From positions 1 through 18,260 of IMG/VR virus record IMGVR_UViG_3300039366_000282: 18,260 nucleotides of DNA. One strand, 5' to 3'. This DNA comes from a virus (Duplodnaviria > Heunggongvirae > Uroviricota > Caudoviricetes). The position numbers were made by a program, and so were the translations under genes. Numbering within the stretch: the stretch's first letter is position 1; the number at the start of each line of letters is the position of its first letter. Of the stretch, positions 2,632 to 18,260 are shown piece by piece. The notes below the pieces were generated by a model. It was not told where the DNA came from and made no database searches. It worked only from the letters and a program-made list of their open reading frames with translations.

Positions 2632-2649
2632 ATTTTATAACCCAGATAC

Positions 2650-2676
2650 GGGCGCCAGAAATGGCGCCTTTTTTAT
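2650..2676 (+). terminator. Rho-independent terminator after J
   Basis: GGCGCCA-GAAA-TGGCGCC perfect 7-bp GC-rich stem followed by TTTTTTATT, starting 19 nt after the J stop. Confidence 0.55.
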
Positions 2677-2698
2677 TGCAGAAAAGCGAGAGGTAATT

Positions 2699-3298
2699 AT
2701 GCGTAAATTATGTGCTGTTATTCTGTCCGCAGTAGTCTGGCTGGTTGCCGCTGGTACGCCAGCGAGCGCAGCAGAGCATCAGTCCACACTAAGCGCCGGG
2801 TATCTTCAGACCCATACTGATATGCCAGGCAGCGATGACCTGAAGGGCATTAATGTGAAATACCGTTATGAATTTACGGACACGCTGGGGCTGGTGACGT
2901 CATTCAGTTATGCCAATGCCAAAGATGAGCAAAAAACGCATTACAGCGATACCCGCTGGCATGAAGATTCAGTGCGTAACCGCTGGTTCAGCATGATGGC
3001 GGGGCCATCTGTACGCGTGAATGAATGGTTCAGTGCTTATGCGATGGCGGGTATGGCTTACAGCCGTGTGTCGACCTTCTCCGGGGATTATCTCCGCGTA
3101 ACTGACAACAAGGGGAAAACGCACGATGTGCTGACCGGAAGTGATGACGGTCGCCACAGCAACACGTCTCTGGCGTGGGGGGCTGGCGTGCAGTTTAACC
3201 CGACCGAATCCGTGGCCATTGACCTTGCTTATGAAGGTTCCGGCAGTGGTGACTGGCGCACTGACGGTTTCATCGTGGGTGTCGGTTATAAATTCTGA
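2699..3298 (+). CDS. lom: Lom outer-membrane protein (Ail/Lom family beta-barrel)
   Basis: 199-aa ORF with N-terminal signal peptide (MRKLCAVILSAVVWLVAAGTPASAA), C-terminal ...GVGYKF typical of OMP barrels; matches lambda Lom from memory; RBS GAGAGG 7 nt upstream of ATG; position immediately downstream of J as in lambda. Confidence 0.85.
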   Translation: MRKLCAVILSAVVWLVAAGTPASAAEHQSTLSAGYLQTHTDMPGSDDLKGINVKYRYEFTDTLGLVTSFSYANAKDEQKTHYSDTRWHEDSVRNRWFSMMAGPSVRVNEWFSAYAMAGMAYSRVSTFSGDYLRVTDNKGKTHDVLTGSDDGRHSNTSLAWGAGVQFNPTESVAIDLAYEGSGSGDWRTDGFIVGVGYKF

Positions 3299-3325
3299 TT
3301 AGCCAGGTAACACAGTGTTATGACA

Positions 3326-3351
3326 GCCCGCCGGTTCAGGCGGGCTTTTTT
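3326..3351 (+). terminator. Rho-independent terminator after lom
   Basis: GCCCGCC-GGTTCA-GGCGGGC stem-loop followed by TTTTTT. Confidence 0.55.
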
Positions 3352-3362
3352 GTGGAGTGGAT

Positions 3363-5738
3363 ATGGCAGCAGTAAAAATCTCAGGTGTGCTGAAAGATGG
3401 TGCGGGAAAACCAATACAGAACTGCACTATTCAACTGAAGGCAAAGCGTAACAGCACCACGGTACTGGTGAACACGGTGGCCTCTGAAAATCCGGATGAA
3501 GCCGGGCGTTACAGCATGGATGTTGAGTATGGCCAGTACAGCGTTATCCTGCTTGTTGAAGGTTTTCCGCCTTCACATGCCGGAACCATTACCGTCTATG
3601 AAGGTTCCAGACCAGGTACGCTGAATGATTTTCTCGGTGCCATGACGGAAGATGATGTCATGCCGGAGGCATTGCGTCGTTTTGAGGAAATGGTGGAAGA
3701 AGCGGCACGCAACGCCGAAGCCGCCTCTCAGAGCGCAGCGGCGGCAAAGAAATCCGAAACTGCAGCGGCATCATCGAAGAACGCGGCGAAAACCTCAGAA
3801 ACGAATGCAGCTAATAGTGCACAGGCGGCAGCGACCTCACAGACTGCATCAGAAAACTCCGCGACAGCAGCCAAAAAATCAGAAACCAACGCGAAAAATA
3901 GCGAGACAGCCGCAAAGACGAGCGAAACCAACGCAAAGTCCAGCCAGACGGCAGCGAAAACCAGCGAAACGAATGCCAAAGCCAGTGAAACTGCGGCGAA
4001 AAGCAGTCAGGATGCAGCAGCCGAAAGCGAGAGCGCGGCAGCCGGTTCTGCGACTTCAGCTGCTGGATCAGCAACTGCTGCGGCTAACAGTCAGAAAGCA
4101 GCGAAGACGAGTGAAACTAACGCAAAGTCCAGCCAGACGGCAGCGAAGACCAGCGAAACGAATGCCAAAGCCAGCGAAACTGCGGCGAAAAGCAGTCAGG
4201 ATGCAGCAGCCGAAAGCGAGAGTGCTGCAGCTGGTTCTGCAAGCGCGGCTGCTGCTTCTGCCACTGCATCAGCTAACAGTCAAAAAGCAGCAAAAACCAG
4301 TGAAACCAACGCAAAGGTGAGCGAAACAGCGGCTGCGAACTCAGCGAAAGCATCGGCAGCAAGCCAGACGGCAGCTAAAGCAAGCGAAGATGCAGCCAGA
4401 GAGTACGCAAGCCAGGCTGCGGAGCCGTATAAATATGTCTTACAGCCGCTGCCTGATGTGTGGATACCATTTAACGATTCGCTGGATATGATTACGGGCT
4501 TTTCGCCGTCATATAAAAAGATTGTTATTGGTGATGATGAAATAACGATGCCTGGCGACAAGGTTGTTAAGTTTAAACGCGCATCGAAAGCAACCTATAT
4601 TAATAAATCTGGTGTGCTGACAGAGGCTGCCATTGACGAGCCACGGTTTGAACGTGATGGCCTGCTTATTGAGGGGCAAAGAACGAACTACATGCTCAAT
4701 TCGGAAAGCCCTGCCAGTTGGGGGCGATCGTCAAATATGGATGTTCCCGAAACCGGGACGGATAGTTTTGGTTTTACCTATGGAAAGTTTGTCTGTAACG
4801 ATTCTCTGATTGGGCAAACCTCAGCCATTAATATGGCATCAATTGCTGCAACAAAGTCAGTTGATGTCTCAGGCGATAATAAATACGTGACAACCTCATG
4901 TCGTTTTAAAACAGAACTGCAGGTAAGGTTGCGTATCCGATTTGATAAATATGACGGTAGCGCAACAACTTTTCTTGGTGATGTGTATATTGATACACAA
5001 ACGCTTGAAATTAATATGACAGGCGGCGCTGCCTCAAGGATTACAGCGAGAGTCAGAAAGGACGAAGTTATCGGATGGATTTTTGCAGAGGCAACAATTC
5101 AGGCAATTGATGGGGAGTTAAAAATAGGTTCTCAGATACAGTATTCTCCTAAGCAGGGCGGGGCAACCGTATCTGGTGACTATATTTATCTGGCCACCCC
5201 ACAAGTAGAAAATGGGCCTTGTGTATCATCTTTTATTATATCAGGAACGACGGCGGCGACCCGCGCAAGCGATATAGTCACAGTTCCCATTAAGAATAAT
5301 CTTTATAATCTTCCTTTTACGGTTCTTTGTGAGGTACATAAGAACTGGTATAAAACGCCAAATGCAGCACCGCGTGTTTTTGATACCGGCGGTCATCAAA
5401 CCGGAGCGGCTATTATTCTTGGCTTCGGTTCTTCAGCAGATTACGACGGATTTCCTTATTGCGATATTGGTGGGTCTAACAGACGGATAAACGAAAATGC
5501 ATCACTTGAAAAAATGGTTATGGGGATGCGTGTAAAGTCTGATCAGTCTACATGCGCAGTAAGTAACGGGCGTATATCCAGCGAAACAAAAACCACATGG
5601 TCCTGTATTCAGAACACCGCAATTATCCGTATTGGAGGCCAGACTACAGCCGGGTTACGTCATTTATTTGGTCATGTAAGGAATTTCAGAATATGGCACA
5701 AGGCATTGACTGATGCTCAGGTGGGGGAGTCAATCTAA
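3363..5738 (+). CDS. stf: Side tail fibre protein: lambda Stf-like N-terminus, heptad-repeat shaft, divergent AT-rich C-terminal domain
   Basis: N-terminus MAAVKISGVLKDGAGKPIQNCTIQLKAKRNSTTV... matches lambda Stf from memory; ATG at 3363 preferred over track GTG 3357 (GGAG 5 nt upstream); long Ala/Ser/Thr/Lys heptad region (KTSETNA/KSSQTAA...); C-terminal ~430 aa encoded by visibly more AT-rich DNA, ending in a LamG-like motif (..VRNFRIWHKALTDAQV..). Confidence 0.8.
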   Translation: MAAVKISGVLKDGAGKPIQNCTIQLKAKRNSTTVLVNTVASENPDEAGRYSMDVEYGQYSVILLVEGFPPSHAGTITVYEGSRPGTLNDFLGAMTEDDVMPEALRRFEEMVEEAARNAEAASQSAAAAKKSETAAASSKNAAKTSETNAANSAQAAATSQTASENSATAAKKSETNAKNSETAAKTSETNAKSSQTAAKTSETNAKASETAAKSSQDAAAESESAAAGSATSAAGSATAAANSQKAAKTSETNAKSSQTAAKTSETNAKASETAAKSSQDAAAESESAAAGSASAAAASATASANSQKAAKTSETNAKVSETAAANSAKASAASQTAAKASEDAAREYASQAAEPYKYVLQPLPDVWIPFNDSLDMITGFSPSYKKIVIGDDEITMPGDKVVKFKRASKATYINKSGVLTEAAIDEPRFERDGLLIEGQRTNYMLNSESPASWGRSSNMDVPETGTDSFGFTYGKFVCNDSLIGQTSAINMASIAATKSVDVSGDNKYVTTSCRFKTELQVRLRIRFDKYDGSATTFLGDVYIDTQTLEINMTGGAASRITARVRKDEVIGWIFAEATIQAIDGELKIGSQIQYSPKQGGATVSGDYIYLATPQVENGPCVSSFIISGTTAATRASDIVTVPIKNNLYNLPFTVLCEVHKNWYKTPNAAPRVFDTGGHQTGAAIILGFGSSADYDGFPYCDIGGSNRRINENASLEKMVMGMRVKSDQSTCAVSNGRISSETKTTWSCIQNTAIIRIGGQTTAGLRHLFGHVRNFRIWHKALTDAQVGESI
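3906..4283 (+). repeat. 189-bp (63-codon) near-identical in-frame tandem duplication inside the tail-fibre shaft
   Basis: acgcaaagtccagccagacggcagcgaa... occurs at 3931 and again at 4120 (period 189 bp) with only a few substitutions; partial further units flank it. Confidence 0.85.
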
Positions 5739-6019
5739 TGAAAGATTTAACACTCAAATTTCCCGACAGGGCCGACTTTTCGGCCTTTATGGAGAGCATT
5801 GGCTATTATGATGACGAGTTGATGCAGGATGATATTCTTATTGACGTGATAGGTAACGTGTACAAAGAAACCGGAGAACTGACTGAAGATGGCGAACCGG
5901 TATGTGTTAAGGAAGACGGATATTTTGTAAACGTGCGCATCATTAATGATTCGCAAATATCGTCATTATTCGATGAATACGTGGTTGCTGTTGAGCATCA
6001 ACTTCGTGGCTGGATGTGA
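5738..6019 (+). CDS. Hypothetical 93-aa acidic protein, translationally coupled to the tail-fibre gene
   Basis: ATG overlaps the stf stop (TAATG at 5736-5740); GGGGGAG 8 nt upstream; no family recognised. Confidence 0.5.
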   Translation: MKDLTLKFPDRADFSAFMESIGYYDDELMQDDILIDVIGNVYKETGELTEDGEPVCVKEDGYFVNVRIINDSQISSLFDEYVVAVEHQLRGWM

Positions 6020-6028
6020 GGAAGAAAA

Positions 6029-7069
6029 ATGGCTACATCGACAGTAATTCCTGATGACATCAAAACGCTAAAATCCGACGTTAGCAAATTAAAAAACGAT
6101 CAAGGAAGCTACGCAACAAAATTATATGTAGACAGCAAAGATGAAATCGTTGGTGACTGGTCTGCTTCATGGTATCAGCAGGTATTGCCAACTAGCGGAG
6201 CTATATTTGGGAGAAAACTCCGCTCAACTCACAGGACGGCAGGTGTTGAGGATGCGTATTGCGAACTATACCTCAAAAAATGGATAGACAGTCCAGGTAA
6301 CGCAATGGCGCGCCTTAACCTGAACGATAACGGGACAAACATTTGCTGGGACTTTACCAACCTTTATGGCGGTACGATGATTTTTCCCGGTGACAGCGGA
6401 TACCTCAAAATGGGTAACTGCCTTATGTCATACAGCAAGCGTGGAAGTAACGCGCTTATTAAATTTGATTACACCGACACATTACAGATCAAATATGCCA
6501 ATCATGGGTCAACCATGACATTAAACACACAGGGAACCGCTTATGCTGGTGTTACTGCTCAATTGTGGGGCAACACCAGCCGTCCTGTTGTTTATGAAGT
6601 CGGTGTTGATGGTGGCGCTTATATGTTCTATGCGCAGAAAAATACCGATAACACCTATATGTTAAGCGTTAATGGTGCATGTCATGCCACCGCATTTAAC
6701 CAGCATTCCGACCGGGATCTGAAAGACAACATTCAGGTGATCGATAATGCAACCGACCGCATCCGTAAAATGAACGGCTATACATACACGCTTAAAGAAA
6801 ACGGTATGCCCTATGCTGGTGTCATTGCACAGGAAGCTCTGGAAGCAATCCCAGAAGTTGTAGGTTCCGCAATGAAATATCAGGACGGTGCAAGCGGATC
6901 GGAAGGTGAAGAAGGTGAACGTTATTACACAGTAGATTATTCTGGTGTTACTGGCTTGCTTGTTCAGGTAGCCAGAGAGTCAGACGACAGAATAACAGCA
7001 CTGGAAGAAGAAAACGCAGAATTAAGACAAAGATTATCTGCAATTGAGGCGGCGCTTGCGTCTAAATAA
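6029..7069 (+). CDS. Tail fibre/tailspike-like protein with C-terminal intramolecular chaperone (peptidase S74-type) domain
   Basis: RBS GAGGAAG before ATG; C-terminal region contains ..NQHSDRDLKDNIQVIDNATDRIRKMNGYTYTLKENG..YAGVIAQEALEAIPEVV.. followed by a coiled-coil tail (ALEEENAELRQRLSAIEAA), matching the SD-x-R-LK-x-NI self-cleaving chaperone signature of phage fibres as recalled. Confidence 0.65.
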   Translation: MATSTVIPDDIKTLKSDVSKLKNDQGSYATKLYVDSKDEIVGDWSASWYQQVLPTSGAIFGRKLRSTHRTAGVEDAYCELYLKKWIDSPGNAMARLNLNDNGTNICWDFTNLYGGTMIFPGDSGYLKMGNCLMSYSKRGSNALIKFDYTDTLQIKYANHGSTMTLNTQGTAYAGVTAQLWGNTSRPVVYEVGVDGGAYMFYAQKNTDNTYMLSVNGACHATAFNQHSDRDLKDNIQVIDNATDRIRKMNGYTYTLKENGMPYAGVIAQEALEAIPEVVGSAMKYQDGASGSEGEEGERYYTVDYSGVTGLLVQVARESDDRITALEEENAELRQRLSAIEAALASK

Positions 7070-7075
7070 TATTAA

Positions 7076-7098
7076 GGGGCCGAGCGCCCCGTTTTATT
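7076..7098 (+). terminator. Rho-independent terminator after the fibre module
   Basis: GGGGC-CGAGC-GCCCC hairpin followed by GTTTTATT, 7 nt after the stop at 7069. Confidence 0.55.
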
Positions 7099-7111
7099 GG
7101 GTAGGATGAAA

Positions 7112-7399
7112 ATGGATATAACACCTTTTCTTCATGCGCTTTGTGCTGTGGCTGCGCAGGTACTGGTTGGTTTTTTTACCGGAAACTGGGCTTACGGGGC
7201 GATAGCCGGTTGTACATTCTTCATTGCGCGGGAACACACCCAGGCAGAATATCGCTGGATTGAAATGTTCGGGCATGGCAAGCGGATTAACATGCCGTGG
7301 TGGGGCGGTTTTGATCCACGTGCATGGGATGTGGCAAGCCTGATGGATTTTGCTGTGCCGGTGGTGGCGTGTCTGCTGATCTGGATGTTGATCCGTTAA
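7112..7399 (+). CDS. Small hydrophobic (predicted membrane) protein, ~96 aa, unknown function
   Basis: ORF with two strongly hydrophobic stretches (ALCAVAAQVLVGFFTGNWAYGAIAGCTFFIA and FAVPVVACLLIWMLI); AGGA 5 nt upstream of ATG 7112 (track start 7097 is TTG; 7106 is an alternative ATG). Confidence 0.45.
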   Translation: MDITPFLHALCAVAAQVLVGFFTGNWAYGAIAGCTFFIAREHTQAEYRWIEMFGHGKRINMPWWGGFDPRAWDVASLMDFAVPVVACLLIWMLIR

Positions 7400-7747
7400 A
7401 TATAAAAAGTAAAAAGCCGCAGTAACTTGTCATGATAGGATACTGCGGCTGGCTGGTTAACTTTCGATAGTGCGAGTATTGAATGATTTCCAGCCGTTAC
7501 CGATTTTATATAACTGCAGTGGAATTATTCAACACACAGGCAAAACGGAATAAGCTGAGAAAAAAGCGTGCTTACCCAATCTGGGGTAAATCACGTCTGA
7601 ATGACACCTGAAAACAGGTGGTGGCCTCAAGAAGGCTTGGAATATTCTTCTTTAATGTTATGTAATTTATTGATTTTTCGTGTACGATTTTAAGACATTT
7701 ATTCCAAGAAAAATTTTTAACTCTTTGATTTTTCGACTCTGTATCAT

Positions 7748-7809
7748 CGGTCTCGAAAACCGGAGTAGGGGCAACTCTACCGGGGGTTCAAATCCCCCTC
7801 TCTCCGCCA
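7748..7809 (+). tRNA. Partial tRNA-Ser(CGA) (serU-type), 3' 62 nt only, without 5' acceptor/D-arm; att-core duplicate at the prophage boundary
   Basis: Anticodon stem-loop CCGGT-CTCGAAA-ACCGG (anticodon CGA), long variable arm, T-arm GGGGG-TTCAAAT-CCCCC, 3' acceptor strand TCTCTCC + G + CCA; no matching 5' strand (GGAGAGA...) upstream; matches E. coli serU 3' portion from memory. Confidence 0.75.
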
Positions 7810-8087
7810 ATCATTCAACAAAATCAATCACTTACAAAGCATTTTTGATTTTGTCGTGCATAAATCCCTGCATTAAAATTCCTTTCTCTCGCTCAATTTT
7901 TCTTACTACTGATGCTGTTTTTTACCATTTTGCCGCGCGTCGGGCATCCACTTTTATGCTCTCGAGTTCACACTCTTAACAACAACTTAGCCATTCCCCC
8001 GTCTCTGATGACAAAACAGTTGAACTTCAATTGTTCCAAACGGATCCTGTGAAGATATATCAAAGGAAATGGATTGTTGGAGGATGG

Positions 8088-8924
8088 ATGAAAAGAAGTG
8101 AAATCAGGAAAGCACTGGAAGCATGGTTTGATGTGGAACGCTATGAGGCGATAGAGAAACTCACCTTACAGCAGTTTTATGTTGAGGTTGAGCGGCGCAT
8201 CTTGGCTTACAGAATGTTGTTGAGCCGGAACACCATACCTACCTTTAACCGATTAATGCTGGATGATTACCGCAACAAGATCCTCAGCGGTGAAATCTTT
8301 TTCAGTGGTGATACTGAGACCATTGGATATGAGCTTGCCAGAACCTATGCGGTAAACCCTACGACAAGAAGCCACGCGCAATTTTATGCGAAAACTCTGT
8401 CATTAACCGAAGCCACGCCTGAACTCTCTGGGTTAAGCCAGTCTGAATTTCTGTCCGAATATCTGAAAGAGACATCCCTTAATAATCTTTCACGCATTAC
8501 TGTCGATATTCATCTGGAAGAAGCATCAACCGAAGAGATCATTGAACATCTGAAAGTGCTGATCCCTCAATGGAAGAGGCAGCTTAAGATGACGTCTCCA
8601 GCTCCAAGAGAGTATCGTTTCGGCAAAAGCACGTTCAGAAAAATTATTGAATATCGTCTTATCCCGATGATGGACCTGATCTTCTGGGGAGAAGATAACG
8701 GCATTAAAATCCCGCTTTCACTGATTTCCTCGTTGCTTCATGAGGACAGCGACAACGATCGTGATGAAGGAATGCTCAAGGCAACAGATTACCCGTTAGC
8801 AATGGCTTTTCTGACGGATGCGAGCTATCTGAAATCGCTTGAAGATTACATGATGGAAAACAACCACTTGAAAGACTCCCCTGTTGAAAAGCATGTAGAA
8901 GACGACAGGAATAAGAAAAAATAA
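8088..8924 (+). CDS. Hypothetical protein (278 aa from ATG 8088)
   Basis: Long ORF; track start 8031 is TTG; GGAGGA lies just upstream of ATG 8088; no family recognised. Confidence 0.5.
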   Translation: MKRSEIRKALEAWFDVERYEAIEKLTLQQFYVEVERRILAYRMLLSRNTIPTFNRLMLDDYRNKILSGEIFFSGDTETIGYELARTYAVNPTTRSHAQFYAKTLSLTEATPELSGLSQSEFLSEYLKETSLNNLSRITVDIHLEEASTEEIIEHLKVLIPQWKRQLKMTSPAPREYRFGKSTFRKIIEYRLIPMMDLIFWGEDNGIKIPLSLISSLLHEDSDNDRDEGMLKATDYPLAMAFLTDASYLKSLEDYMMENNHLKDSPVEKHVEDDRNKKK

Positions 8925-9140
8925 GCCAAGTAAAAAGGGTTACGTTCGCTCCGTGCGAACGTGATCGCATCCAGTGTCAACCGTTATCTTTCCATCCGTG
9001 CCCCTTCGAATTTTTCAAAAAAAACTTATTTGAACGTCCCTAAATTGTCATAAGCAAAATCGCTATCATTGTTCACGTCGAAACAACATAGAGAAAAGCG
9101 AAATCTCATAGAGATTACTTACAATAATAGAGGACAGACA

Positions 9141-9359
9141 ATGAAAGAAAATAATGAAACCAGCGTAAAACGATTTATCCGCGTTCCTGATGTTTTAAAT
9201 CGAGTGGGATTTAGTCGCACGACTTTATATGAACGTATTAAGGAAGGAAACTTTCCAGACAGAGTAAAAATAGGGCCAAGATGTGTCGCCTTTGTCGAAA
9301 GTGAGATTGATGAATGGATTGAAGCGGCTATTCGAAACTCACGCCAGAACGCAGCATAA
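9141..9359 (+). CDS. AlpA-family phage/island transcriptional regulator (small HTH)
   Basis: 72-aa product ..FIRVPDVLNRVGFSRTTLYERIKEGNFPDRVKIGPRCVAFVESEIDEWIE.. matches the AlpA/prophage CP4-57 regulator pattern from memory; RBS AGAGGA before ATG 9141. Confidence 0.7.
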   Translation: MKENNETSVKRFIRVPDVLNRVGFSRTTLYERIKEGNFPDRVKIGPRCVAFVESEIDEWIEAAIRNSRQNAA

Positions 9360-9440
9360 AAACAGAAACAAGATCTCGTGTCGAACAGATATCTGTTCGC
9401 TCAGGGCATCTTATTATCCTAAACAATAATGGAGAAAAAT

Positions 9441-9731
9441 ATGAAGATAGAGCTTATTACGACAAAACAGTTTATTGAACAAGCCGAATGTTATTTCAGG
9501 CGCTATATGGACGGATTGCGGAGGAATGCACCAGATGATTTTTATTATTTTCTCAACAATAAATACAATATGAATGACATTATGGAAAGTATCATTAAAA
9601 AAACGAGATATCATTTTTACGATGACACAGAAGAAAACCAAAGGAATCGGATTTATGGAGAAGTAAGCCACTGTAAGGTAAAACAACACCTTCGTCAGCT
9701 TTGGATTATCTATAAGTGTGTATACCGCTAA
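9441..9731 (+). CDS. Hypothetical small protein (96 aa)
   Basis: ORF with GGAGA 5 nt upstream of ATG 9441 (track start 9429 also possible); AT-rich; no recognised family. Confidence 0.4.
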   Translation: MKIELITTKQFIEQAECYFRRYMDGLRRNAPDDFYYFLNNKYNMNDIMESIIKKTRYHFYDDTEENQRNRIYGEVSHCKVKQHLRQLWIIYKCVYR

Positions 9732-9783
9732 TATTTATACAAATATTTTGCTATTCCAATATTAAACTAAAGAGGAAATAAAA

Positions 9784-10080
9784 ATGAATACATTTAAAAA
9801 TAAAACTACTAAAATCTTTTATGTTGTGTCCTTGCATATCTATGCGGAGCTTTTTAACTCAAAGGATAAAACGACCAGTAATATGATTATAACGCATGTA
9901 ATGGATCATGAGTTTGTTTGTAAGCTAATCGATCTGGCGATGAGAAATGCTGAAAAGCATCTTCTGAAAAAAGCATGGAAAAAGAACGCGGCTGAAAAAC
10001 TATCTGAGGTGGATTTTAAAGAGGTTAGGCAGGCATTAGCCAAAATGCACTACACTGTTCTGGCGGAATCAATATGTTGA
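9784..10080 (+). CDS. Hypothetical small protein (98 aa)
   Basis: ORF preceded by strong RBS AAAGAGGAAATAAAA-ATG; no recognised family. Confidence 0.4.
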   Translation: MNTFKNKTTKIFYVVSLHIYAELFNSKDKTTSNMIITHVMDHEFVCKLIDLAMRNAEKHLLKKAWKKNAAEKLSEVDFKEVRQALAKMHYTVLAESIC

Positions 10081-10152
10081 TATGTTCTGGTGTCTATCTG
10101 CCCCTTCTTGGGGCTGATAACAAATATTATTTTTCTATCCAAGGAGCAAAAA

Positions 10153-10395
10153 ATGACTGATGAATTTCATGTGATGTATATGTATAAAAAAATCCAAGCG
10201 GAAGCCGTAACTACTGACATCAAAACACTTGAACAGCTTTTGAAAAAGTTCAGGAGCGTTGTCAACGAACGTCGTGAAGAATACTATCAGGAGATTGGTG
10301 AGAAAAAAGCGCATAAGTTGAAAATGAAAAGATTACAAAGAATGCTTGAGAAAATGGCGTGTGACCGAGTCTCGCCAGAAGATCTCATTGACTGA
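10153..10395 (+). CDS. Hypothetical small charged/helical protein (80 aa)
   Basis: RBS AAGGAG 6 nt upstream of ATG 10153 (track ORF starts earlier at 10090 without an RBS); product lysine/glutamate-rich. Confidence 0.4.
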   Translation: MTDEFHVMYMYKKIQAEAVTTDIKTLEQLLKKFRSVVNERREEYYQEIGEKKAHKLKMKRLQRMLEKMACDRVSPEDLID

Positions 10396-10443
10396 TAAGT
10401 GTTCTGTATAATAACTTATCTATATAAAAACATGGAGGTGGTT

Positions 10444-10833
10444 ATGGGCTGGGAGCTTCACATAGTAAGAACGGAACATTGGTTCGATAGCGCAAGTGTT
10501 CCAATCAGTAGTGAAGAATGGCTCCAGCTTGTTAATGATGATAAAGAACTATCCATAGATAACAAGAACGGTGATTTTTTCGCCATATGGAGTGGTCAAA
10601 GTGAACTCGATGAACCTTGGCTTGACTGGAGTGATGGAAGAATTTCAACAAAACATCCTGACGAAGCCCTTTACTGTAAAATGTTGCAGATAGCTGAGAA
10701 GCTACATGCTGTAGTCGTTGATGAGGATGATCACAAATATTCGCTACCAAGTGACCTGATGAATCCTTCATGGGCGAATTCATCACTGACTGATAAAAAA
10801 CAAACTTTATGGAAAAGGTTGTTTTCAAAATAG
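10444..10833 (+). CDS. Hypothetical protein (129 aa, Trp/Asp-rich)
   Basis: RBS GGAGGTGG before ATG 10444 (MGWELHIVRTEHW...); track ORF starts at 10399. Confidence 0.45.
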   Translation: MGWELHIVRTEHWFDSASVPISSEEWLQLVNDDKELSIDNKNGDFFAIWSGQSELDEPWLDWSDGRISTKHPDEALYCKMLQIAEKLHAVVVDEDDHKYSLPSDLMNPSWANSSLTDKKQTLWKRLFSK

Positions 10834-11139
10834 TTTTGTCAAGTATTCAGGGAATAGCAATGGCACGCCGAATTGATCTTCATGAAATTGTTAACGCTCT
10901 CAACGGGAGCTTTGTTAGTCGAAACAACGACTTTAGAAGATACGGGGCTATTGGGCAGTTAAAATCATTGGCTATCTGTATTAGCTCAGACTTGATCTGG
11001 TGGTTTTCACTGGTAGCACACTATCAAATCTGACAGTCTGCTATGAGCGAGGAGCGGAAGTTAGTACCTCCGATGCTATAGCGCAGCGTTCTTAATTATG
11101 TAAAAATATTCTACCATTCAAGTAAAGTAAGTGAAAACA

Positions 11140-12057
11140 ATGGAATTTAAACTTGATCTAAAATCCAATGCTTTAGATAGTTTTAATGAAGCCATCAAAA
11201 AATTCCAGCAAGGAGAAAATGGAGATTATAAAGCTTTCAAGTTTGCTATACTACATTTGTCTCATTGTTTTGAGTTGACGTTGAAAATGTATATTCAAAC
11301 ATTAGACGAAAACTTGATTTTTTCAAAATGCTACAGAGCAGTAATAGAGCGTGCCAAAAGTGACAAAGTCAATCTTATTGAAGCTTTTTATAAAATGGAG
11401 GCTGAAGAATTCGACTTTGAAGAACTTATTAAAGGACATAAAAATCCTCATACTATTACTTTGGATCAAGCAATATCGATAGCTACACATGAAAAGTGTA
11501 GCATAACCTCAGTGGACTTAGTTGATAAAGAGTTACTAGATGATATCGCTTGGATGAAAGATCTTAGAAATTCAATTGAGCATTACGAATTCTCGTTTAC
11601 TATTAAATATGTTCGTCTGGCAATGGGGCGTTTGGTCAGAGGGTTGGCTGAGTTCTCTGATATATTTGGTTTATACGATCTAGATAAAGAAGTTTCTAAG
11701 GAAATATCTAATTCCTATAATATACTTTCTGACGAATATGAGCATAATGTTCATGAAGGTTATCTTGATGTAGCTGATGCTAGAAAAGCAGCATTTCTTG
11801 GGGTTAGACCAAAGTTTTTTGAGTTAGTTAATTGGAAAGAATATATCTGCGATTACTGTGGTCATGAGACAATGATTCAAAATAACGATTCTACTTCAGG
11901 ATATCGTTGTACGTATTGCGGTGCCGAAGACTCAGGCTCAATTGAAGTCACATGTGATGTTTGTGGTGCTGAATGGCCTGAAGAGGAAATGAGTTCTTGG
12001 CTTGGGGAGGGGACTAACACTTGTCCTGACTGTAGAGATATTAGCAACAAACCATGA
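11140..12057 (+). CDS. HEPN-like (R-x4-H) domain protein with C-terminal four-CxxC zinc-ribbon region; candidate abortive-infection/RNase effector
   Basis: 305 aa from ATG 11140 (track GTG 11131 alternative); helical N-terminal region ending in ..WMKDLRNSIEHYEF.. (R-N-x3-H at nt 11566-11583); C-terminus carries CDYC, CTYC, CDVC, CPDC pairs; RBS weak. Confidence 0.55.
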   Translation: MEFKLDLKSNALDSFNEAIKKFQQGENGDYKAFKFAILHLSHCFELTLKMYIQTLDENLIFSKCYRAVIERAKSDKVNLIEAFYKMEAEEFDFEELIKGHKNPHTITLDQAISIATHEKCSITSVDLVDKELLDDIAWMKDLRNSIEHYEFSFTIKYVRLAMGRLVRGLAEFSDIFGLYDLDKEVSKEISNSYNILSDEYEHNVHEGYLDVADARKAAFLGVRPKFFELVNWKEYICDYCGHETMIQNNDSTSGYRCTYCGAEDSGSIEVTCDVCGAEWPEEEMSSWLGEGTNTCPDCRDISNKP

Positions 12058-12326
12058 CTAAGATTAATCCTTGATTGAAGATGCATTCTTGTCCGCCTCT
12101 CATGTTTTATAATGTATAATGCTTCTGGCATTATAGCGTGAGAGGCGGAAGATATTGTTAACCGAATTGGCAAGCCTAATTTATAACATTATTGCTAATA
12201 TGGAGGAATAGATTTCTGTTCATCCGCTTACATGGAGTATATACTGTAAACCTTACATCCTTTGAATAAACGGGATGGGAGGCGTCCATCCTGTTTAAGA
12301 TCTCCATCATAAAGATTAAAAATTTC

Positions 12327-12851
12327 TTATTCTTCTGAAGTAAGCATCTTCTCCTGATGGGGGTGATACTTATATGCATAATTAAAGAGGGTCAGATCTA
12401 GTTCAAACGTTTCTCGCATACCATCCATCGTTACGGACGTATTCAGTAATCCACGACGGGCCAGAGATTCTACACCCGGTTCAGGATCATCAAGCCTATT
12501 CATTTGTCCCCATGTCATAACAGAACCACCATGCGTCACAAAGTGCATGACTACTTCTTTTTCTCTTCCAGTCAGAGAATTATAAAGCGTTGCCAGTCGT
12601 TTTTCTGCAACTGCCTCTCCCTTGCGGGTAATAATTCGCAGATATAATCCTCCCGCAATAATCTTTACAACCGGAAAAATAATAACAAAAGAAAACAGAG
12701 TCAGTACATAATCGCGAAGAATAAGATAACAGGTAACTCCTGCGATTCCGGAGACAAATATTGCGATGTTAATGCTGAAGTCTTTCTCCGAATAAACACG
12801 ATCAAACATTTTTTCAAGAAATTCTGTCACGATTTCATTCCTTGTTAACAC
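12327..12851 (-). CDS. Hypothetical membrane protein (two predicted TM helices near N-terminus, soluble C-terminal domain)
   Basis: Minus-strand ORF; hydrophobic segments FSINIAIFVSGIAGVTCYLIL and LTLFSFVIIFPVVKIIAGGLYL; start ambiguous (GTG 12851 or ATG 12809, neither with a clear SD). Confidence 0.45.
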   Translation of the reverse strand: MLTRNEIVTEFLEKMFDRVYSEKDFSINIAIFVSGIAGVTCYLILRDYVLTLFSFVIIFPVVKIIAGGLYLRIITRKGEAVAEKRLATLYNSLTGREKEVVMHFVTHGGSVMTWGQMNRLDDPEPGVESLARRGLLNTSVTMDGMRETFELDLTLFNYAYKYHPHQEKMLTSEE

Positions 12852-13283
12852 TAAAGATGCTCGAGTGGGTATGAATATACCGCAATAGTGCGGGAGGATT
12901 TCATTAGTGTCCCATCAAAATCTGGCTTGAACTGGCTATTGAGTCGCTAATCATTATAAATTTTAGCTGTCAATACTACCATAATAAATAGCAGCATTCT
13001 CAAGAGTTGTGGCGAACGCAACAAAACTCTCCCCAACAACCCGCTTGTAAAGATGCTTTTATACTTCTAACGTCCGCTCTTGGCACGGAGTTGCCTGTCA
13101 AATTAGGTTTAGATCTGTGCGATAGCTGTGTCAGGTCAAATCTGAGCTAATAGAGCTATCGATACCGGCGTCACTTCGATGAGGTTTTCTCTCATAGCCG
13201 AGAGCGACACCCTCTCTTCGCACGTAGGATTTTCTTTGGGAGAGAACAAAAACCGCCAAATTTGGTTGACGGCTTTATTGTGA

Positions 13284-13688
13284 TCAGAGCGCGAAGTCTT
13301 CCAGCGTTTTACCAGCTTCGATAGCAGCAGCGATCGCTTTAGGAGTACGGCCTTGACCTGTCCAAGTCTGCTCATTACCATTTTCATCTGTATATTTGTA
13401 TTTAGCAGGACGAGGAGCACGAGTTGATTTGGCTTTAGGCTGGGATGAACTAACAGCAGCAAGGAGTTCTGCCGGATCAATGCCATCTTCTAACAGTTTC
13501 TGGCGGAAGGCTTCCAGTTTAGCCTGACGTTCTTCTTGTTCTTTACGGGCTGAATTTTCTTCCTCACGGCGATCTTCAACGACAGCAGAGAGCTTTTCCA
13601 GCATCTCTTCCAGAGTTGTCAGATCTGTTTCACGAGCATGTGCGCGAAGTGTACGAATATTGTTCAGTGCCTTGAGAGCTTCACTCAT
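13284..13688 (-). CDS. H-NS family nucleoid-associated protein (island-encoded H-NS/StpA paralog)
   Basis: 134-aa product [28 protein letters not shown].. with C-terminal DNA-binding motif [12 protein letters not shown] and ..[12 protein letters not shown]..; matches E. coli H-NS/StpA from memory. Confidence 0.85.
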
Positions 13689-13844
13689 AGTATGTCATCC
13701 GGTGTTTTAAAATGGGCGATTAATAAAAATAATGCTTACGGTGATGTTGGAAAAATCAAAAAAACAGTCAGTAAATAATATAGTAAACATTATCGTTTAA
13801 GCAATCTAATACATCTCATTTCACACGAATAACATAGGAGTGCT

Positions 13845-14324
13845 TTAAAGAGACATTTTCCTGCGCTTCTGGCTTGATGGCTCGAACTCTGACGAGATGC
13901 GAGATAGCTGGTCAAGACTGTATTCAATTGAACGCTGGAACTCAACAGCGGCTTCTGTGCGTTGTTTTATGACCAAGGCTACTATTTCTTCATCACTCTT
14001 TTCTGAAATAGCCTTACGGTATAACACGCGTTCGTTAAATAAATCGAGATTTCCTGATGATTTGGCTGATGTGTTAGCTTTTGAACTGCTGATAGGATTT
14101 AGCTCATCAATAAAGTATTCAATAAGCGATTCTCTCTTTTTATCCAGCCTGCGAAGTTCGGTATGTGCGGACTTAAATTTCTGAGCTTTTATCAATGGAA
14201 TATCATCAGAACGCAGTTTGCGATATTCATTTCTGTATTCTTCTATCGGAATATGGTTTTTTAGTTCTTTGACTGTATTTACGTATTCGATTAAATCACT
14301 GTTGTCTGTTTTTACTTTTCTCAT
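13845..14324 (-). CDS. Hypothetical protein (159 aa, charged/helical)
   Basis: Minus-strand ORF with GAGG 9 nt upstream of ATG 14324; no recognised family. Confidence 0.45.
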   Translation of the reverse strand: MRKVKTDNSDLIEYVNTVKELKNHIPIEEYRNEYRKLRSDDIPLIKAQKFKSAHTELRRLDKKRESLIEYFIDELNPISSSKANTSAKSSGNLDLFNERVLYRKAISEKSDEEIVALVIKQRTEAAVEFQRSIEYSLDQLSRISSEFEPSSQKRRKMSL

Positions 14325-14600
14325 AAGAAATACCTCGTAGATAAAATAGTTGATATATTTATATTACGAGATATGGTGCAGGTGTCAAATTTATGGGGCT
14401 GGGCGCTATTTTTGTATTTTACTTTTAGCTACTGTTTCTTTTGAGAAGAACCGAGAGTTAAATGTGCCGTTCTTAGTCAGTATCTTAGCGTCCACTAATA
14501 ATTTTAACCGTTCTTCATCGGTTCTCTTAGCCGCTAATTTTTTCACCTTTTTTGTCAGATCTTCAATATCTATTATTTACATCCTTATCTTTTAAGTTGT

Positions 14601-15401
14601 TTAAACAATCTGAGGTGTTTTATACTGTTCAAAAATAAGATTTCCTGAATATGTATAAATTTCTATTTTTCCTACTTTACCATCAGTGCCTTTTATCGAG
14701 AAACGAATTAATCTTTCATTATAATATTTTTCTAACAAGTCTGGTCGTTCAGTAAAATATCTTGATTTTGTTGAGCGATCTTTCAGATAGTCGCAGCTTG
14801 AACAAACCTGCTTTTTGAAATCCTTCTCAGATAAACCACTTTCTTTTATTTTTAAAGAAATAAAAGCCTTTAAAGGTCGTTCATATTCATCTCTTTCTTT
14901 TGCTTTGCGTATTTGTTCTTCTTTCTTGCGCTGTTCTTCAATACGGTAAAGTCTGCCTTGTTCTTCCTGCGCTCGTATTATATCCTCTTGAATCATTTTA
15001 CTGATGATTGAGGCAGGAACAACACTGATACCTTCAGACCACCCCTGATAAGGATTATTGTTTTGTATATTTCGGACTGTAGCAGATATTCTGTCTATAT
15101 CCAGTTCTTTATCAAAGGAAACAATGCGTTGTCTGTTTTCTTTTGATATGAGCTTAGCCGTGTTTACCGGGGATTCCAGACCCTTTAATTTGAATGTAGC
15201 TACGGCACTGTTGCGACTTCTATAATATAATGCTTGTTTCTTATCTCCAATATAACATTCAAGGTAAGAGAAAATCTTAAACTCCTGAATGCCAAATGTT
15301 TCCTCAAGCATGGTCATCTGCTCAGCCAATATATTTAGTATATCACTCTTGGATAGTTTTTCGTGGAGCTTAATCTCAAGCGAACCGGGTAGTTTTTTCA
15401 T
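14601..15401 (-). CDS. Hypothetical protein (266 aa), second gene of minus-strand operon
   Basis: Minus-strand ORF; AAGGA 7 nt upstream of ATG 15401; 27-bp gap to the upstream gene; central lysine/glutamate-rich helical segment; no recognised family. Confidence 0.5.
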   Translation of the reverse strand: MKKLPGSLEIKLHEKLSKSDILNILAEQMTMLEETFGIQEFKIFSYLECYIGDKKQALYYRSRNSAVATFKLKGLESPVNTAKLISKENRQRIVSFDKELDIDRISATVRNIQNNNPYQGWSEGISVVPASIISKMIQEDIIRAQEEQGRLYRIEEQRKKEEQIRKAKERDEYERPLKAFISLKIKESGLSEKDFKKQVCSSCDYLKDRSTKSRYFTERPDLLEKYYNERLIRFSIKGTDGKVGKIEIYTYSGNLIFEQYKTPQIV

Positions 15402-15428
15402 TGTTATTTCCTTGTTGTTGTTATTTTA

Positions 15429-16163
15429 TCAGGATACTTTCTGCATATGAGAGTCGGCGTCAACAGCGTTTCTTCTTGCTTCCTCATTTTCCTTTGTTCT
15501 TTTATATACTTTTCGTGGTTTATCAATATGTATGCTGTTATTTGTATTAGGAACAGCATTATTCTTTTTCTTCTTACTGAAAACAAATGCGTCAGTATAG
15601 ATTTCTTTGGTCTCAGTTTCTAAGGATAGGGTTCTTCTTTCACTTTTTGACATAGCTGAATAACTTTCTGGATACTGTTCTATTTCTGCGCAAAGATTGC
15701 GAGCGTTGCTCAACTGTTCTTTACGTTTCTGATCCAGTTGGTGACTCATTCCTTTAGCGAAAATGTTAGAGTTGATATAGAGATGACCATGATGCTCGAC
15801 GAGTATTCCTTTCTGTCTGAGTTTTTTAAAAATGTTAGACATATTACCGGAAGCGATGTTCAGTGCTTTACACAGCGATGATTGCGAAAGATTGATCAGA
15901 TTTCCAAACTCCATATACTCCAGAATATAGGTTAATACACGGAATTCATTCTTGGATATGTCAAGATCAGAGAAGACACGAAAGTTGGAAGTAAAAGCAA
16001 ATACATAAGGTTGTGAAAACGATATAGCTTTATCTTCCTCAGAAGAAATAACTGTCGTTGATTTTATTTCTTTGTTTTGTAGCAAGCGTCTTGCGATATC
16101 AATCTTTTGTTCTGTAGTTAATGATTCAAATAAGTGTAATAGATCAGCATCTGGTGTATTCAT
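15429..16163 (-). CDS. Winged-helix DNA-binding protein, RepL-like (putative replication initiator or regulator)
   Basis: 244 aa from ATG 16163 (track start 16226 would lie upstream of the predicted promoter); segment ..ISKNEFRVLTYILEYMEFGNLINLSQSSLCKALNIASGNMSNIFKKLRQKGILVEHHGHLYINSNIFAKG.. resembles RepL-type wHTH proteins as recalled; repeated palindromes upstream. Confidence 0.5.
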   Translation of the reverse strand: MNTPDADLLHLFESLTTEQKIDIARRLLQNKEIKSTTVISSEEDKAISFSQPYVFAFTSNFRVFSDLDISKNEFRVLTYILEYMEFGNLINLSQSSLCKALNIASGNMSNIFKKLRQKGILVEHHGHLYINSNIFAKGMSHQLDQKRKEQLSNARNLCAEIEQYPESYSAMSKSERRTLSLETETKEIYTDAFVFSKKKKNNAVPNTNNSIHIDKPRKVYKRTKENEEARRNAVDADSHMQKVS

Positions 16164-16197
16164 ATTATTCTCTCTTATTATTTTTGTTATATATATT

Positions 16198-16226
16198 TTA
16201 ATACTATGCAAAAAAGTGAAAGTCAA
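16198..16226 (-). promoter_or_regulatory. Putative sigma70 promoter for the minus-strand operon (TTGACT-17-TATTAA)
   Basis: On the minus strand, -35 TTGACT (16221-16226) and -10 TATTAA (16198-16203) are separated by 17 nt, about 35 nt upstream of ATG 16163. Confidence 0.4.
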
Positions 16227-16287
16227 TAGTAGAACTATAAATAAAATAGGAAGTATATTCTTATGACAATGTTATATGTTAAAAAAA

Positions 16288-16371
16288 CTATGTTCGAACA
16301 TAGATCTTGCTATGTTCGAACATAGGACGGATCTATGTTTGAACATAGGAGTTTGCTATGTTCGAACATAG
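16288..16371. promoter_or_regulatory. Array of four 16-bp palindromes CTATGTTCGAACATAG (one with a single mismatch) at 22-23-bp spacing; putative operator/iteron array
   Basis: Perfect palindromes at 16288-16303, 16310-16325, 16356-16371 and CTATGTTTGAACATAG at 16333-16348; located 60-150 bp upstream of the predicted promoter of the RepL-like gene. Confidence 0.6.
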
Positions 16372-16627
16372 GAAAAAAAGTTGTGAAGCCGCGATTTTAC
16401 TGGTCCGGGACTATGCTTATAATTAAATAATTAGTAAGAAGTTAAGAGAGTCCAGTTTTACTTTTGCGTTATGTTTTAGTGGTTTTACAGGGGGTATTGT
16501 ATTCCTTAATAACTGCTATCAGCGAAGTGATTGTTTCGAACAATCACGAACCGCTGCTTTTATTGCGAGAGCTTAATTAAGATTTCTTTTGTTTTATTAG
16601 CGTCTACGACGCGATCTTTTTTTGGAT

Positions 16628-16790
16628 AAATCCATCATTAACAGGGGCAAGCCCTGTCCAGCAAAGTGATTGTTGCCAACAATCACGAAGTGCTGCTACT
16701 AAGGATATAGTTTTCCTATGTGTTTAAGAGCAAATGCTATATGTCAGAGGGAATATCATGTTCGCATAGGATCTGAATTCTAACTTGGTG
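16628..16790 (+). repeat. Copy 1 of a ~160-bp non-coding direct repeat module
   Basis: aaatccatcattaacaggggcaagccctgtccagcaaagtgattgttgccaacaatcacgaagtgctgctactaagg... recurs at 17124 at roughly 90% identity (period 496 bp); contains the palindrome GTGATTGTT-GCC-AACAATCAC. Confidence 0.8.
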
Positions 16791-17123
16791 GAGGGAATGA
16801 TCTTTATACTGATCGCTTTGTTGTCCATTGATAAAATATTAATGCATTATAGCTGAACAAGGAAAATAGTTTTATACCAGTATTAGGGGCGTAGCCGTGC
16901 GCCAGCACAATGTATGTATTTTCAAAAAAATAATTGAATGTATCAGGTAAAAATAAATATCAATAAATGTAAGTAAGAGTGTTCTGTAAACTGTTAATAA
17001 ACCGCACAGGAAGTGTGGTAAGGATTTGGGATCTGAAAGATAACACATATAACCATCTTCACGCTTAAAGCTCTTATAACTGATTACAGGCAGTAATTTA
17101 TATGGGAAAAATTATTAATTGAA

Positions 17124-17286
17124 AAATCCATCATTAACAGGGACAAGCCCTGTCCAGCAAAGTGATTGTTGGCAACAATCACGAAGTGCTGCTACTAAAG
17201 ATATAGTTTTCCTATACGTTTAAGAGCAAATGCTATATGTCAGATGGGGAATGCTATGTTTAAAAATAGGATCCGAATTAAAAGTT
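17124..17286 (+). repeat. Copy 2 of the ~160-bp non-coding direct repeat module
   Basis: Near-identical to 16628-16790; palindrome GTGATTGTT-GGC-AACAATCAC at 17162-17182; hairpin CAGGG-ACAAG-CCCTG. Confidence 0.8.
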
Positions 17287-17520
17287 AAAAGGAAAATAGA
17301 TCTGACTATGAGCGAATACATTCGCTTATTAGCTCATAGTAGTAAAATAAAATACAAAATGTCAGTTTTAGGGCGTAGCCGTGCATAAGCACAGAGATAA
17401 AAATCTTTTCAAAAAGAAGTTTAATAATAAGAAGTAAAATCATTAATAAATGAAAATATATTTGATTTTTACACTTGCGATAGAGTATTAAACAGTAATA
17501 AATAAAAAAAGGAAAATATA

Positions 17521-17790
17521 ATGAATAATATCAAAATGATCACACTCTTCCATCCACATGACAAAACACCATTTATGATCTGTATTGTAAACACAGTAGA
17601 AGATACAGAACTTGGATTGAAATTAACTCTTGAAAACGGCAACAGCATTTGTGTCAATAACTATGACCATTATCTGTTATCAGAGTCTGTAAGTCGTTGT
17701 GATAAAGACAGGGTGAAAAATATTTATATCCGTTTGGTTTCAGAACTCACACAGATGAGTGAAGAAACTATAAAATCACAGATGTTATAA
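17521..17790 (+). CDS. Hypothetical small protein (89 aa)
   Basis: ORF with RBS AGGAAAATATA-ATG; possible promoter TTGATT-18-TATTAA at 17462-17491; no recognised family. Confidence 0.4.
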   Translation: MNNIKMITLFHPHDKTPFMICIVNTVEDTELGLKLTLENGNSICVNNYDHYLLSESVSRCDKDRVKNIYIRLVSELTQMSEETIKSQML

Positions 17791-17873
17791 AACATCTATA
17801 AAAGCATAATAAATATTTTTGATATTACGATTAGTTGCATGGTATTAAATAAAAACAATAACAGGAAAATATC

Positions 17874-18260
17874 ATGAGAAAAATAAAAACAAAAATCTAC
17901 TTGCCTACAGCTTTAACAGGAAACATGGATAAACACTATATCCCTGTTTTAGAGGATTTAAGAAAAACGATATACAGCGACAGAATGTTATCAAGGCTTG
18001 CAGATAGCGGCAATATTGTTATCCATAGTTCAGTTGGGTATCCGGTTGCTAAGTATAAAAACACGGGGATTAGCATAGGCATAGAACCATTAAATCCGAT
18101 GATAAGACAAGATCTGACTCTTGGATATATCGTGGTAGTCAGAAACGGAAAAGCATCACAGGAGATTAATGGTTTACTTAACAGGTCATTGCCAAAAGCG
18201 ATAAGCACTTTTAAGGACCATATTAATGAATATGAAGCAGCAAAAAGTAAAATGCGATAA
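17874..18260 (+). CDS. Hypothetical protein (128 aa)
   Basis: ORF with RBS CAGGAAAATATC-ATG (same context as the preceding gene); stop TAA at the window end. Confidence 0.4.
   Translation: MRKIKTKIYLPTALTGNMDKHYIPVLEDLRKTIYSDRMLSRLADSGNIVIHSSVGYPVAKYKNTGISIGIEPLNPMIRQDLTLGYIVVVRNGKASQEINGLLNRSLPKAISTFKDHINEYEAAKSKMR

Follow-up and report, generated by a model that had tools for sequence, protein, structure and literature searches.

A candidate single-protein HEPN–zinc-ribbon defence effector in a variable cargo slot of an E. coli tRNA-Ser-linked island

An 18,260-nucleotide (nt) stretch of viral DNA, positions 1 to 18,260 of the IMG/VR record IMGVR_UViG_3300039366_000282 and called the window throughout, carries a plus-strand gene for a 305-residue protein in which a helical N-terminal domain with an R-x4-H motif precedes four CxxC pairs, all within the last 70 residues. 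The original prediction for this gene described an orphan HEPN-like protein fused to a zinc-ribbon region, of an architecture it did not recognise, and proposed it as an undescribed abortive-infection or RNase effector. The open reading frame (ORF) itself, with its motif and cysteine pairs, is well founded: the ORF list and the RefSeq coding sequence (CDS) have identical coordinates, and the residues in question are conserved. In E. coli NZ_CP031215, RefSeq labels the product simply 'hypothetical protein' (WP_021531400.1). A GTG codon at 11131 provides an alternative start; the ATG is the start chosen in RefSeq and in every homolog. Coordinates and supporting evidence for this gene, the parts of its product, and its surroundings are collected in the table.

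AlphaFold2, run with an alignment of the family, returned a model (predicted local distance difference test score, pLDDT, 87.6; predicted template modelling score, pTM, 0.76) in which the helical N-terminal domain is followed by a long helix, residues 187-219, and by short beta hairpins spread over the part with the CxxC pairs. The N-terminal domain forms the all-alpha, up-and-down helical bundle of HEPN proteins and contains their Rx4-6H motif with a polar residue directly after the arginine (R143-N144-x3-H148). SO_3166 (5YEP) was the best PDB template for the window protein and was also the best template for HEC-08, an E. coli anti-phage protein considered below; HepT/MNT structures were among the top structural matches. 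Fold and conserved motif together support the HEPN assignment. In HEPN RNases, activity is metal-independent and comes from a composite site formed where two subunits of a dimer meet.

Multiple comparisons support the importance of the motif and cysteine residues. First, across 26 close homologs, N144, E147, H148, and seven of the eight cysteines were invariant, and R143 was more than 90% conserved. Second, across 60 relatives at roughly 20-50% identity, R143, N144, H148, and all eight cysteines were at least 90% conserved, as were N10, S14, K34, E45, L46, K49, and T105. Because the motif and the CxxC pairs are retained in both sets, they are not chance occurrences. Third, the HEPN helices were the most conserved regions of the family (entropy 1.0-1.1), with the lowest entropy of any part of the protein (1.02) in residues 1-56, the stretch matched by the PADLOC candidate family PDC-S64, where the motifs NALDSFNEA and KFAILHLSHxxELxLK are both conserved. 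In the linker, L196, D198, E199, Y200, and E206 were invariant within the close subfamily. Finally, the zinc-ribbon character of the C-terminus is supported by the four CxxC pairs and by weak profile matches: all four cysteines of the first ribbon were invariant across the 60 relatives, and the family profile for this region weakly matched the S27e and PolD-DP2 zinc ribbons (E=4e-4 to 7e-4); in the second ribbon, C275 was invariant and C272, C295, and C298 were at least 90% conserved in the same set. Variation was concentrated elsewhere in the HEPN domain and at the C-terminus. The insertion within the HEPN domain (residues 57-128) was just 62-76% identical even in the closest homologs and lacks about 32 residues in the shorter relatives P0072-74, and the second ribbon plus tail was the most variable region of all (entropy 1.69), with a tail that differs among subgroups. 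The high variability of these two regions is compatible with, and not proof of, a role for both in specificity.

Features of the HEPN–zinc-ribbon gene, its product, and the surrounding cargo slot
Feature	Position	Strand	Evidence or remark
HEPN–zinc-ribbon protein gene, 305 aa	11140..12057	+	ORF list, RefSeq CDS, homolog clusters
HEPN helices alpha1-alpha2, aa 1-56	11140..11307	+	DSSP helices 7-26, 31-55
Variable helical insertion within HEPN domain, aa 57-128	11308..11523	+	entropy 1.65
HEPN helices alpha3-alpha4, aa 129-176, bearing catalytic-type motif	11524..11667	+	
Rx4H HEPN motif, codons of R143-N144-S-I-E-H148	11566..11583	+	sequence, conservation, hhalign to HEC-08
Linker, aa 177-232, chiefly one long helix, L-x-DEY motif	11668..11835	+	DSSP helix 187-219
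Zinc ribbon 1, aa 233-263, C237/C240 and C257/C260	11836..11928	+	beta strands 245-247, 255-257
Zinc ribbon 2 and C-terminal tail, aa 264-305, C272/C275 and C295/C298	11929..12054	+	
Left boundary element, one inverted-repeat arm (I1)	11018..11065	.	strain divergence, recurrence
Right boundary element, other inverted-repeat arm (I1, I2)	13067..13152	.	EC28 similarity, P2-like match
Imperfect hairpin (inverted repeat I5)	12092..12149	.	18-nt arms, 83% complementary, 22-nt loop
Gene for protein with two transmembrane helices, 174 aa from GTG (RefSeq 167 aa, 12327-12830)	12327..12851	-	

The protein belongs to a large family and is thus no orphan. An exhaustive profile search recovered 630 clusters (defined at 50% identity) at E<=1e-3, and a word-indexed search recovered 74 close homolog clusters, most of about 300-320 residues, with a functional annotation in none and with the named clusters mostly from Gammaproteobacteria. 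Single-protein searches of Pfam, NCBIfam, and PDB sequences gave nothing significant, only sub-threshold zinc-ribbon noise. Comparison with the PADLOC models had a mixed outcome for the window protein, as PDC-S64 matched (E=1.6e-16, 58 bits), better than any other model in the library, and the HEC-08 model did not. For the 60 relatives, PDC-S64 matched 59, DUF3644 28-29, PDC-S19 20, and HEC-08 13, with best scores of 1.9e-8 for Pfam DUF3644 and 1.7e-15 for the PADLOC HEC-08 model.

Family-level alignment was more informative than the single sequence. In hhalign, the family profile aligned with HEC-08 (sequence from Payne et al., Table S2) with a probability of 96.4% and E=1.2e-9 over 245 columns, in a register that places R143, N144, and H148 on R123, N124, and H128 of HEC-08 (LRN-IEH on HRNRVVH) and that aligns the first zinc ribbons. 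As a control, HEC-08 was compared with PADLOC and matched its own model (1e-173) and DUF3644 (3e-71), with a cross-match to PDC-S64 (3e-8); HEC-08, described by its authors as DUF3644, had no direct match to Pfam DUF3644 at E<=0.001. Based upon the profile alignment to HEC-08 and the cross-match of HEC-08 to PDC-S64, we place the PDC-S64-like and HEC-08 families, on sequence grounds, as sisters in one lineage, with the window protein closer to PDC-S64.

The gene occupies a variable 2-kb slot, 11059-13072, defined by comparison with strain EC28, from which the window diverges at 11058 and with which similarity resumes at 13073. It lies between a conserved gene for a 144-residue protein and a backbone gene of the H-NS family; the backbone of the island comprises DUF6387, AlpA, small ORFs, truncated H-NS, DUF4756, and RepL-like genes. 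Other strains carry other cargo in the slot: EC28 has a DUF6602 protein (PADLOC PD-DExK, E=2e-25; NucC, E=4e-18), MS14386 a Ser/Thr kinase (PADLOC PD-T4-6, E=3e-47) together with an unknown 153-residue gene, and MCJCHV-1 an unknown 249-residue gene. Neither this last gene nor an unknown 168-residue slot gene had a PADLOC match. The alternative cargos lie at 5906-8089 in locus L010, 11248-12621 in L002, 5514-6263 in L009, and 5447-5956 in L011. A protein with the working name '6602' has been validated as DS-18 (DefensePredictor, PMC13092281).

Of 5426 complete E. coli genomes, 24 (0.4%) carry the slot content as a cassette of 2,051 bp (11036-13086) with an identity of at least 99.4%. The copies occupy two or more unrelated contexts on chromosomes, among them an island at a prophage end that also holds FRG, DEAD-helicase, and GIY-YIG genes. 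This sporadic, hotspot-restricted spread bears on the possibility that the protein is a non-catalytic HEPN-fold regulator (compare MtlR, a HEPN-fold regulator) whose ribbons bind DNA or RNA, for it fits defence cargo and not a regulator. The R-N-x3-H motif, moreover, is at least 90% conserved in very divergent relatives and aligns with a histidine that HEC-08 requires. We regard a purely regulatory or nucleic-acid-binding role as extremely improbable.

The slot is flanked by imperfect inverted repeats, one of 38 nt at 74% and one of 27 nt at 85% (10973-10999 / 13132-13158), and the left boundary element recurs in 678 of the 5426 E. coli genomes. Both boundaries are homologous to those of a variable locus of P2-like prophages that lies between the tail-sheath and tail-fibre-assembly genes, the left element adjoining the tail-sheath gene and the right matching the tail-fibre-assembly side in loci L024 and L026. 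The cargo at this P2-like locus differs and includes an HNH protein, a NERD protein, and unknown genes. A previous study of P2 hotspots dealt with the cos-proximal hotspot and not with the sheath/tail-fibre-assembly locus (Rousset et al., 2022). These common flanks suggest that cassettes are exchanged through them between the tRNA-Ser island and P2 prophages.

Homologs in other genera also occupy mobile-element and defence-island contexts, as lone cargo. In Rahnella, a P2/186-like prophage carries the homolog directly after its cI gene, and the Xenorhabdus and Klebsiella homologs are cargo of integrative and conjugative elements (ICEs), the Klebsiella copy near PIN, type IIG restriction-modification, and HNH genes. 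Further homologs are on conjugative plasmids. In Pseudomonas (L019 3539-6958), the homolog follows, by 43 nt, an operon of Cap4-nuclease, 161-residue, and SMC-like genes that we read as Lamassu-like, and in Pectobacterium (L020 6658-6981), where a filamentous prophage ends, it follows a gene with an Xre_MbcA_ParS_C antitoxin-like domain by 20 nt. The genes adjacent in Pectobacterium and Pseudomonas may be lineage-specific partnerships. Together with the variable slot, these contexts support the predicted role in defence.

The Pectobacterium arrangement, the fact that many HEPN proteins are toxins of toxin-antitoxin (TA) modules, and the HepT/MNT structures among the top structural matches would also suit a TA or addiction toxin that stabilises a mobile element with an unrecognised antitoxin. 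We consider this highly improbable, as neither the window nor the homolog loci contain an MNT gene or other conserved partner, just about 80 bp of cargo, with no ORF, precede the gene, and the comparable protein RAZR is not toxic alone. A HEPN-MNT (HepT-MntA) type II/VII system in particular was rejected, as no MNT gene adjoins the gene in the window or its homologs in eight neighbourhoods.

Convergent with the HEPN–zinc-ribbon gene is a membrane-protein gene, as the original prediction noted, whose product has two hydrophobic segments (about residues 27-45 and 48-70) and matched nothing in Pfam or PADLOC. Its homologs make up a small enterobacterial family and recur as single cargo genes, either where prophages end or next to a NERD gene of the P2 locus (L024 5082-5585; L013-L015 4001-4504; L012 4001-4504). 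A two-gene system, with this protein in the role of a sensor, a second effector, or an immunity factor, is suggested by the joint presence of the pair in the cassette, at the identity and in the 24 genomes and at least two unrelated contexts given above. Several observations make such a system very unlikely. The genes are convergent and hence form no operon; homologs of the HEPN–zinc-ribbon protein in Xenorhabdus, Rahnella, Klebsiella, Aeromonas, Pseudomonas, and Pectobacterium have no two-transmembrane homolog nearby; two-transmembrane homologs are found alone; a recombination breakpoint at ~12245 divides the two modules; and HEC-08, also known as DS-38, acts as a single gene. Because the genes occur separately and are divided by this breakpoint, we treat the two-transmembrane gene, from its sequence context, as independent co-cargo and not as an obligate partner; it may itself be a candidate superinfection-exclusion or defence gene. 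The hairpin between the convergent genes is possibly a bidirectional terminator, and a simple terminator scan did not flag it. A sigma-70 promoter scan of the plus strand upstream of the HEPN–zinc-ribbon gene found no convincing site.

The wider window agrees with the placement of the gene in an AT-rich island beside a prophage boundary. Positions 1-7747 are the tail end of a lambdoid prophage, with the J tip-attachment protein, Lom, and an Stf-type tail fibre encoded within 49-7400 and with a Peptidase_S74 chaperone-domain protein, and GC content falls from 0.50-0.62 in the first 4.5 kb to 0.32-0.40 over 9000-13000. From 7748 on, the window is 100% identical to the tRNA-Ser-linked island of NZ_CP031215. 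Because this prophage/island junction falls inside tRNA-Ser in NZ_CP031215 and a tRNA search of the window found none intact, the tRNA-Ser site seems to have been the point of prophage integration. An Rfam scan of the window found no RNA family. Just left of the junction, 7441-7508 holds a dispersed repeat of 65-68 nt, two copies of which, at 92% and 89% and in opposite orientation, occur in locus L021 (NZ_AP023209.1, pMTY18781-4). This 68.5-kb sequence is typed as a non-mobilizable plasmid and has the chromosomal genes ecpDE, ykgJ, yagU, and paoABCD beside the cassette; it may be a chromosomal contig misassigned as a plasmid.

The small ORFs upstream of the gene are co-directional with it, as predicted. 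They (AlpA; unknowns at 9429-9731 and 9784-10080; truncated H-NS; and the 144-residue ORF) were rejected as parts of a system, being conserved island backbone that is also present with other cargos. Two H-NS-family genes flank the AT-rich slot, one at 10090-10395 (+) with the N-terminal oligomerisation domain only and one at 13284-13688 (-) of full length, and the truncated protein could influence how the island is silenced. Further along, next to the RepL-like gene at 15429-16226, AT-rich non-coding DNA holds a direct repeat (about 159 bp, 89% identity; 16625-16779 and 17121-17279) and a further inverted copy of about 85 bp (16288-16371); these repeats could be iteron- or origin-like.

We conclude that the gene probably encodes a single-protein effector against phages, or mobile elements more widely, in which an N-terminal HEPN domain of the DUF3644/PDC-S64/HEC-08 lineage is joined by a helical linker to two Cys4 ribbons, and that would act as an infection-triggered abortive RNase with the ribbons as its sensor or regulator. 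By analogy with HEC-08/DS-38 and with RAZR, the protein would be kept inactive in uninfected cells. Upon infection, the zinc ribbons, possibly with the variable HEPN insertion, would recognise a phage-derived protein or nucleic acid; recognition would rearrange a dimer or oligomer and assemble the R143/N144/H148 active site; and the resulting RNA cleavage would stop translation and abort the infection. The gene would move as swappable cargo between prophage and genomic-island defence hotspots.

Several results weigh against this interpretation. The significant alignment to PDC-S64 (E<=0.001) covers only residues 3-87, or model positions 2-88 of 339, and PADLOC's own coverage rules might not call the protein as PDC-S64. 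At E<=10, the window protein matched neither Pfam DUF3644 (PF12358) nor the PADLOC HEC-08 hidden Markov model, and BLASTP against HEC-08 was not significant, the identity being too low. A tblastn search of 50,697 phage records gave no match to the protein. Moreover, variability in the zinc ribbons does not clearly exceed that of the remaining protein, and the first ribbon is fairly conserved, so a sensor role for them is argued by analogy only.

If validated, the protein would represent a second experimentally supported branch, PDC-S64-like, of single-gene HEPN–zinc-ribbon defences. With 305 residues, a confident model, clear catalytic-type and zinc-ligand residues, and a natural 2-kb cassette, it would be an easy test case for the gating of a HEPN domain by ribbons. 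The boundary sequences that the E. coli tRNA-Ser-linked island and P2-like prophages have in common around swappable defence cargo should also be useful for mining candidates, for example the 249-residue, 153-residue, and 167-residue genes in these slots.

Comparison with known systems upheld the reading as a zinc-ribbon HEPN effector predicted to act in defence and removed the claim of novelty. DUF3644 was listed as a HEPN family (EC042_2821) fused to zinc ribbons in 2013 (Anantharaman et al., 2013, PMC3710099), and the window protein, with four conserved CxxC pairs in two ribbons, has this architecture; EC042_2821/DUF3644 was described in restriction-modification operons, whereas the window gene is stand-alone hotspot cargo. 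A distant homolog of like architecture has been validated twice, PADLOC includes the family as a candidate, and predicted defence genes published earlier already include a 99%-identical protein. This protein, WP_063119594.1, is identical to the window protein at 303 of 305 positions and appears in Table S10 of DefensePredictor, which covers uncharacterised clusters from 3,000 E. coli strains, as predicted_defensive TRUE with a mean log-odds of 10.1, compared to a stringent cutoff of 4; its best known-defence match was 'Retron_IX~HEPN' at just 16% query coverage, and it was not among the cloned systems (PMC13092281). In the literature, 'PDC-S64' and the protein accessions were found in no main text, the accession occurring only in a supplementary table.

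HEC-08 (WP_001313577.1, E. coli, 366 residues) protects against phage, and mutation of H128 abolishes this defence (Payne et al., 2024, 10.1101/2024.01.29.577857). The same protein was independently validated as DS-38/'HEP2', with differences of 4-5.7 log on Bas19 and Bas25 in the plaquing table (DefensePredictor, Science 2026, PMC13092281). Like the window protein, it is encoded by a single E. coli accessory gene and has an N-terminal HEPN domain (DUF3644-type in HEC-08, probably so in the window protein) with R-N-x3-H followed by C-terminal CxxC zinc ribbons, and its essential H128 aligns with H148. It differs in having, by our reading of its sequence, about eight CxxC-type pairs compared to four in the window protein, in lacking the latter's HEPN insertion of about 70 residues and long linker helix, and in being found embedded in Hma systems instead of in a prophage/island cargo slot. 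PDC-S64 is a single-gene candidate and is also matched by HEC-08; PDC-S19 and the PADLOC DUF3644 model are grouped with it here.

Ishtar proteins, with an N-terminal HEPN domain of DUF3644 or DUF4145 type, block the conjugative plasmid RP4 (bioRxiv 10.64898/2026.07.06.735840) and resemble the window protein in being single genes near defence genes and in joining an N-terminal HEPN domain to a variable C-terminal domain. This precedent, with the presence of homologs in ICE and plasmid cargo regions, could mean that the window protein is mainly a barrier to plasmids or conjugation, or a factor in competition between elements, and not an anti-phage protein. We find this distinctly unlikely: the C-terminal domain of Ishtar is a beta-sheet/alpha-helix module and not zinc ribbons, HEC-08/DS-38, the closest validated relative by architecture, is anti-phage, and the slot and its boundaries are common to prophage cargo loci.

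For the mode of action of the proposed anti-phage effector, RAZR (PD-T7-4) is, by analogy, the best model of how it might work. Its zinc-finger domain binds phage ring proteins, and oligomerisation positions the HEPN sites for non-specific cleavage of single-stranded RNA that halts translation, giving abortive infection with no toxicity of RAZR alone (Zhang et al., Nature 2026, PMC13017515). Both proteins combine Cys4 zinc-ribbon and HEPN domains, the latter a divergent RNase in RAZR, in one chain. By contrast, RAZR has its zinc-finger domain at the N-terminus and its HEPN domain at the C-terminus, one zinc finger instead of two ribbons, and a DUF4145-type HEPN domain with R146...H154 (Rx7H); the window protein matched neither the PD-T7-4 nor the DUF4145 model and is no member of the RAZR group. 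A more ambitious proposal, which we judge rather unlikely, is that this subfamily embodies a distinct logic of HEPN activation, in which tandem C-terminal ribbons on a long lever-like helix, possibly with the hypervariable insertion, directly sense a phage structure or nucleic acid and trigger RNA cleavage via oligomerisation, in a geometry that would be unlike that of RAZR because of the reversed domain order, and, as a separate point, that the short inverted-repeat boundary elements common to the island slot and the P2 prophage locus serve specifically to exchange defence cassettes among unrelated mobile elements.

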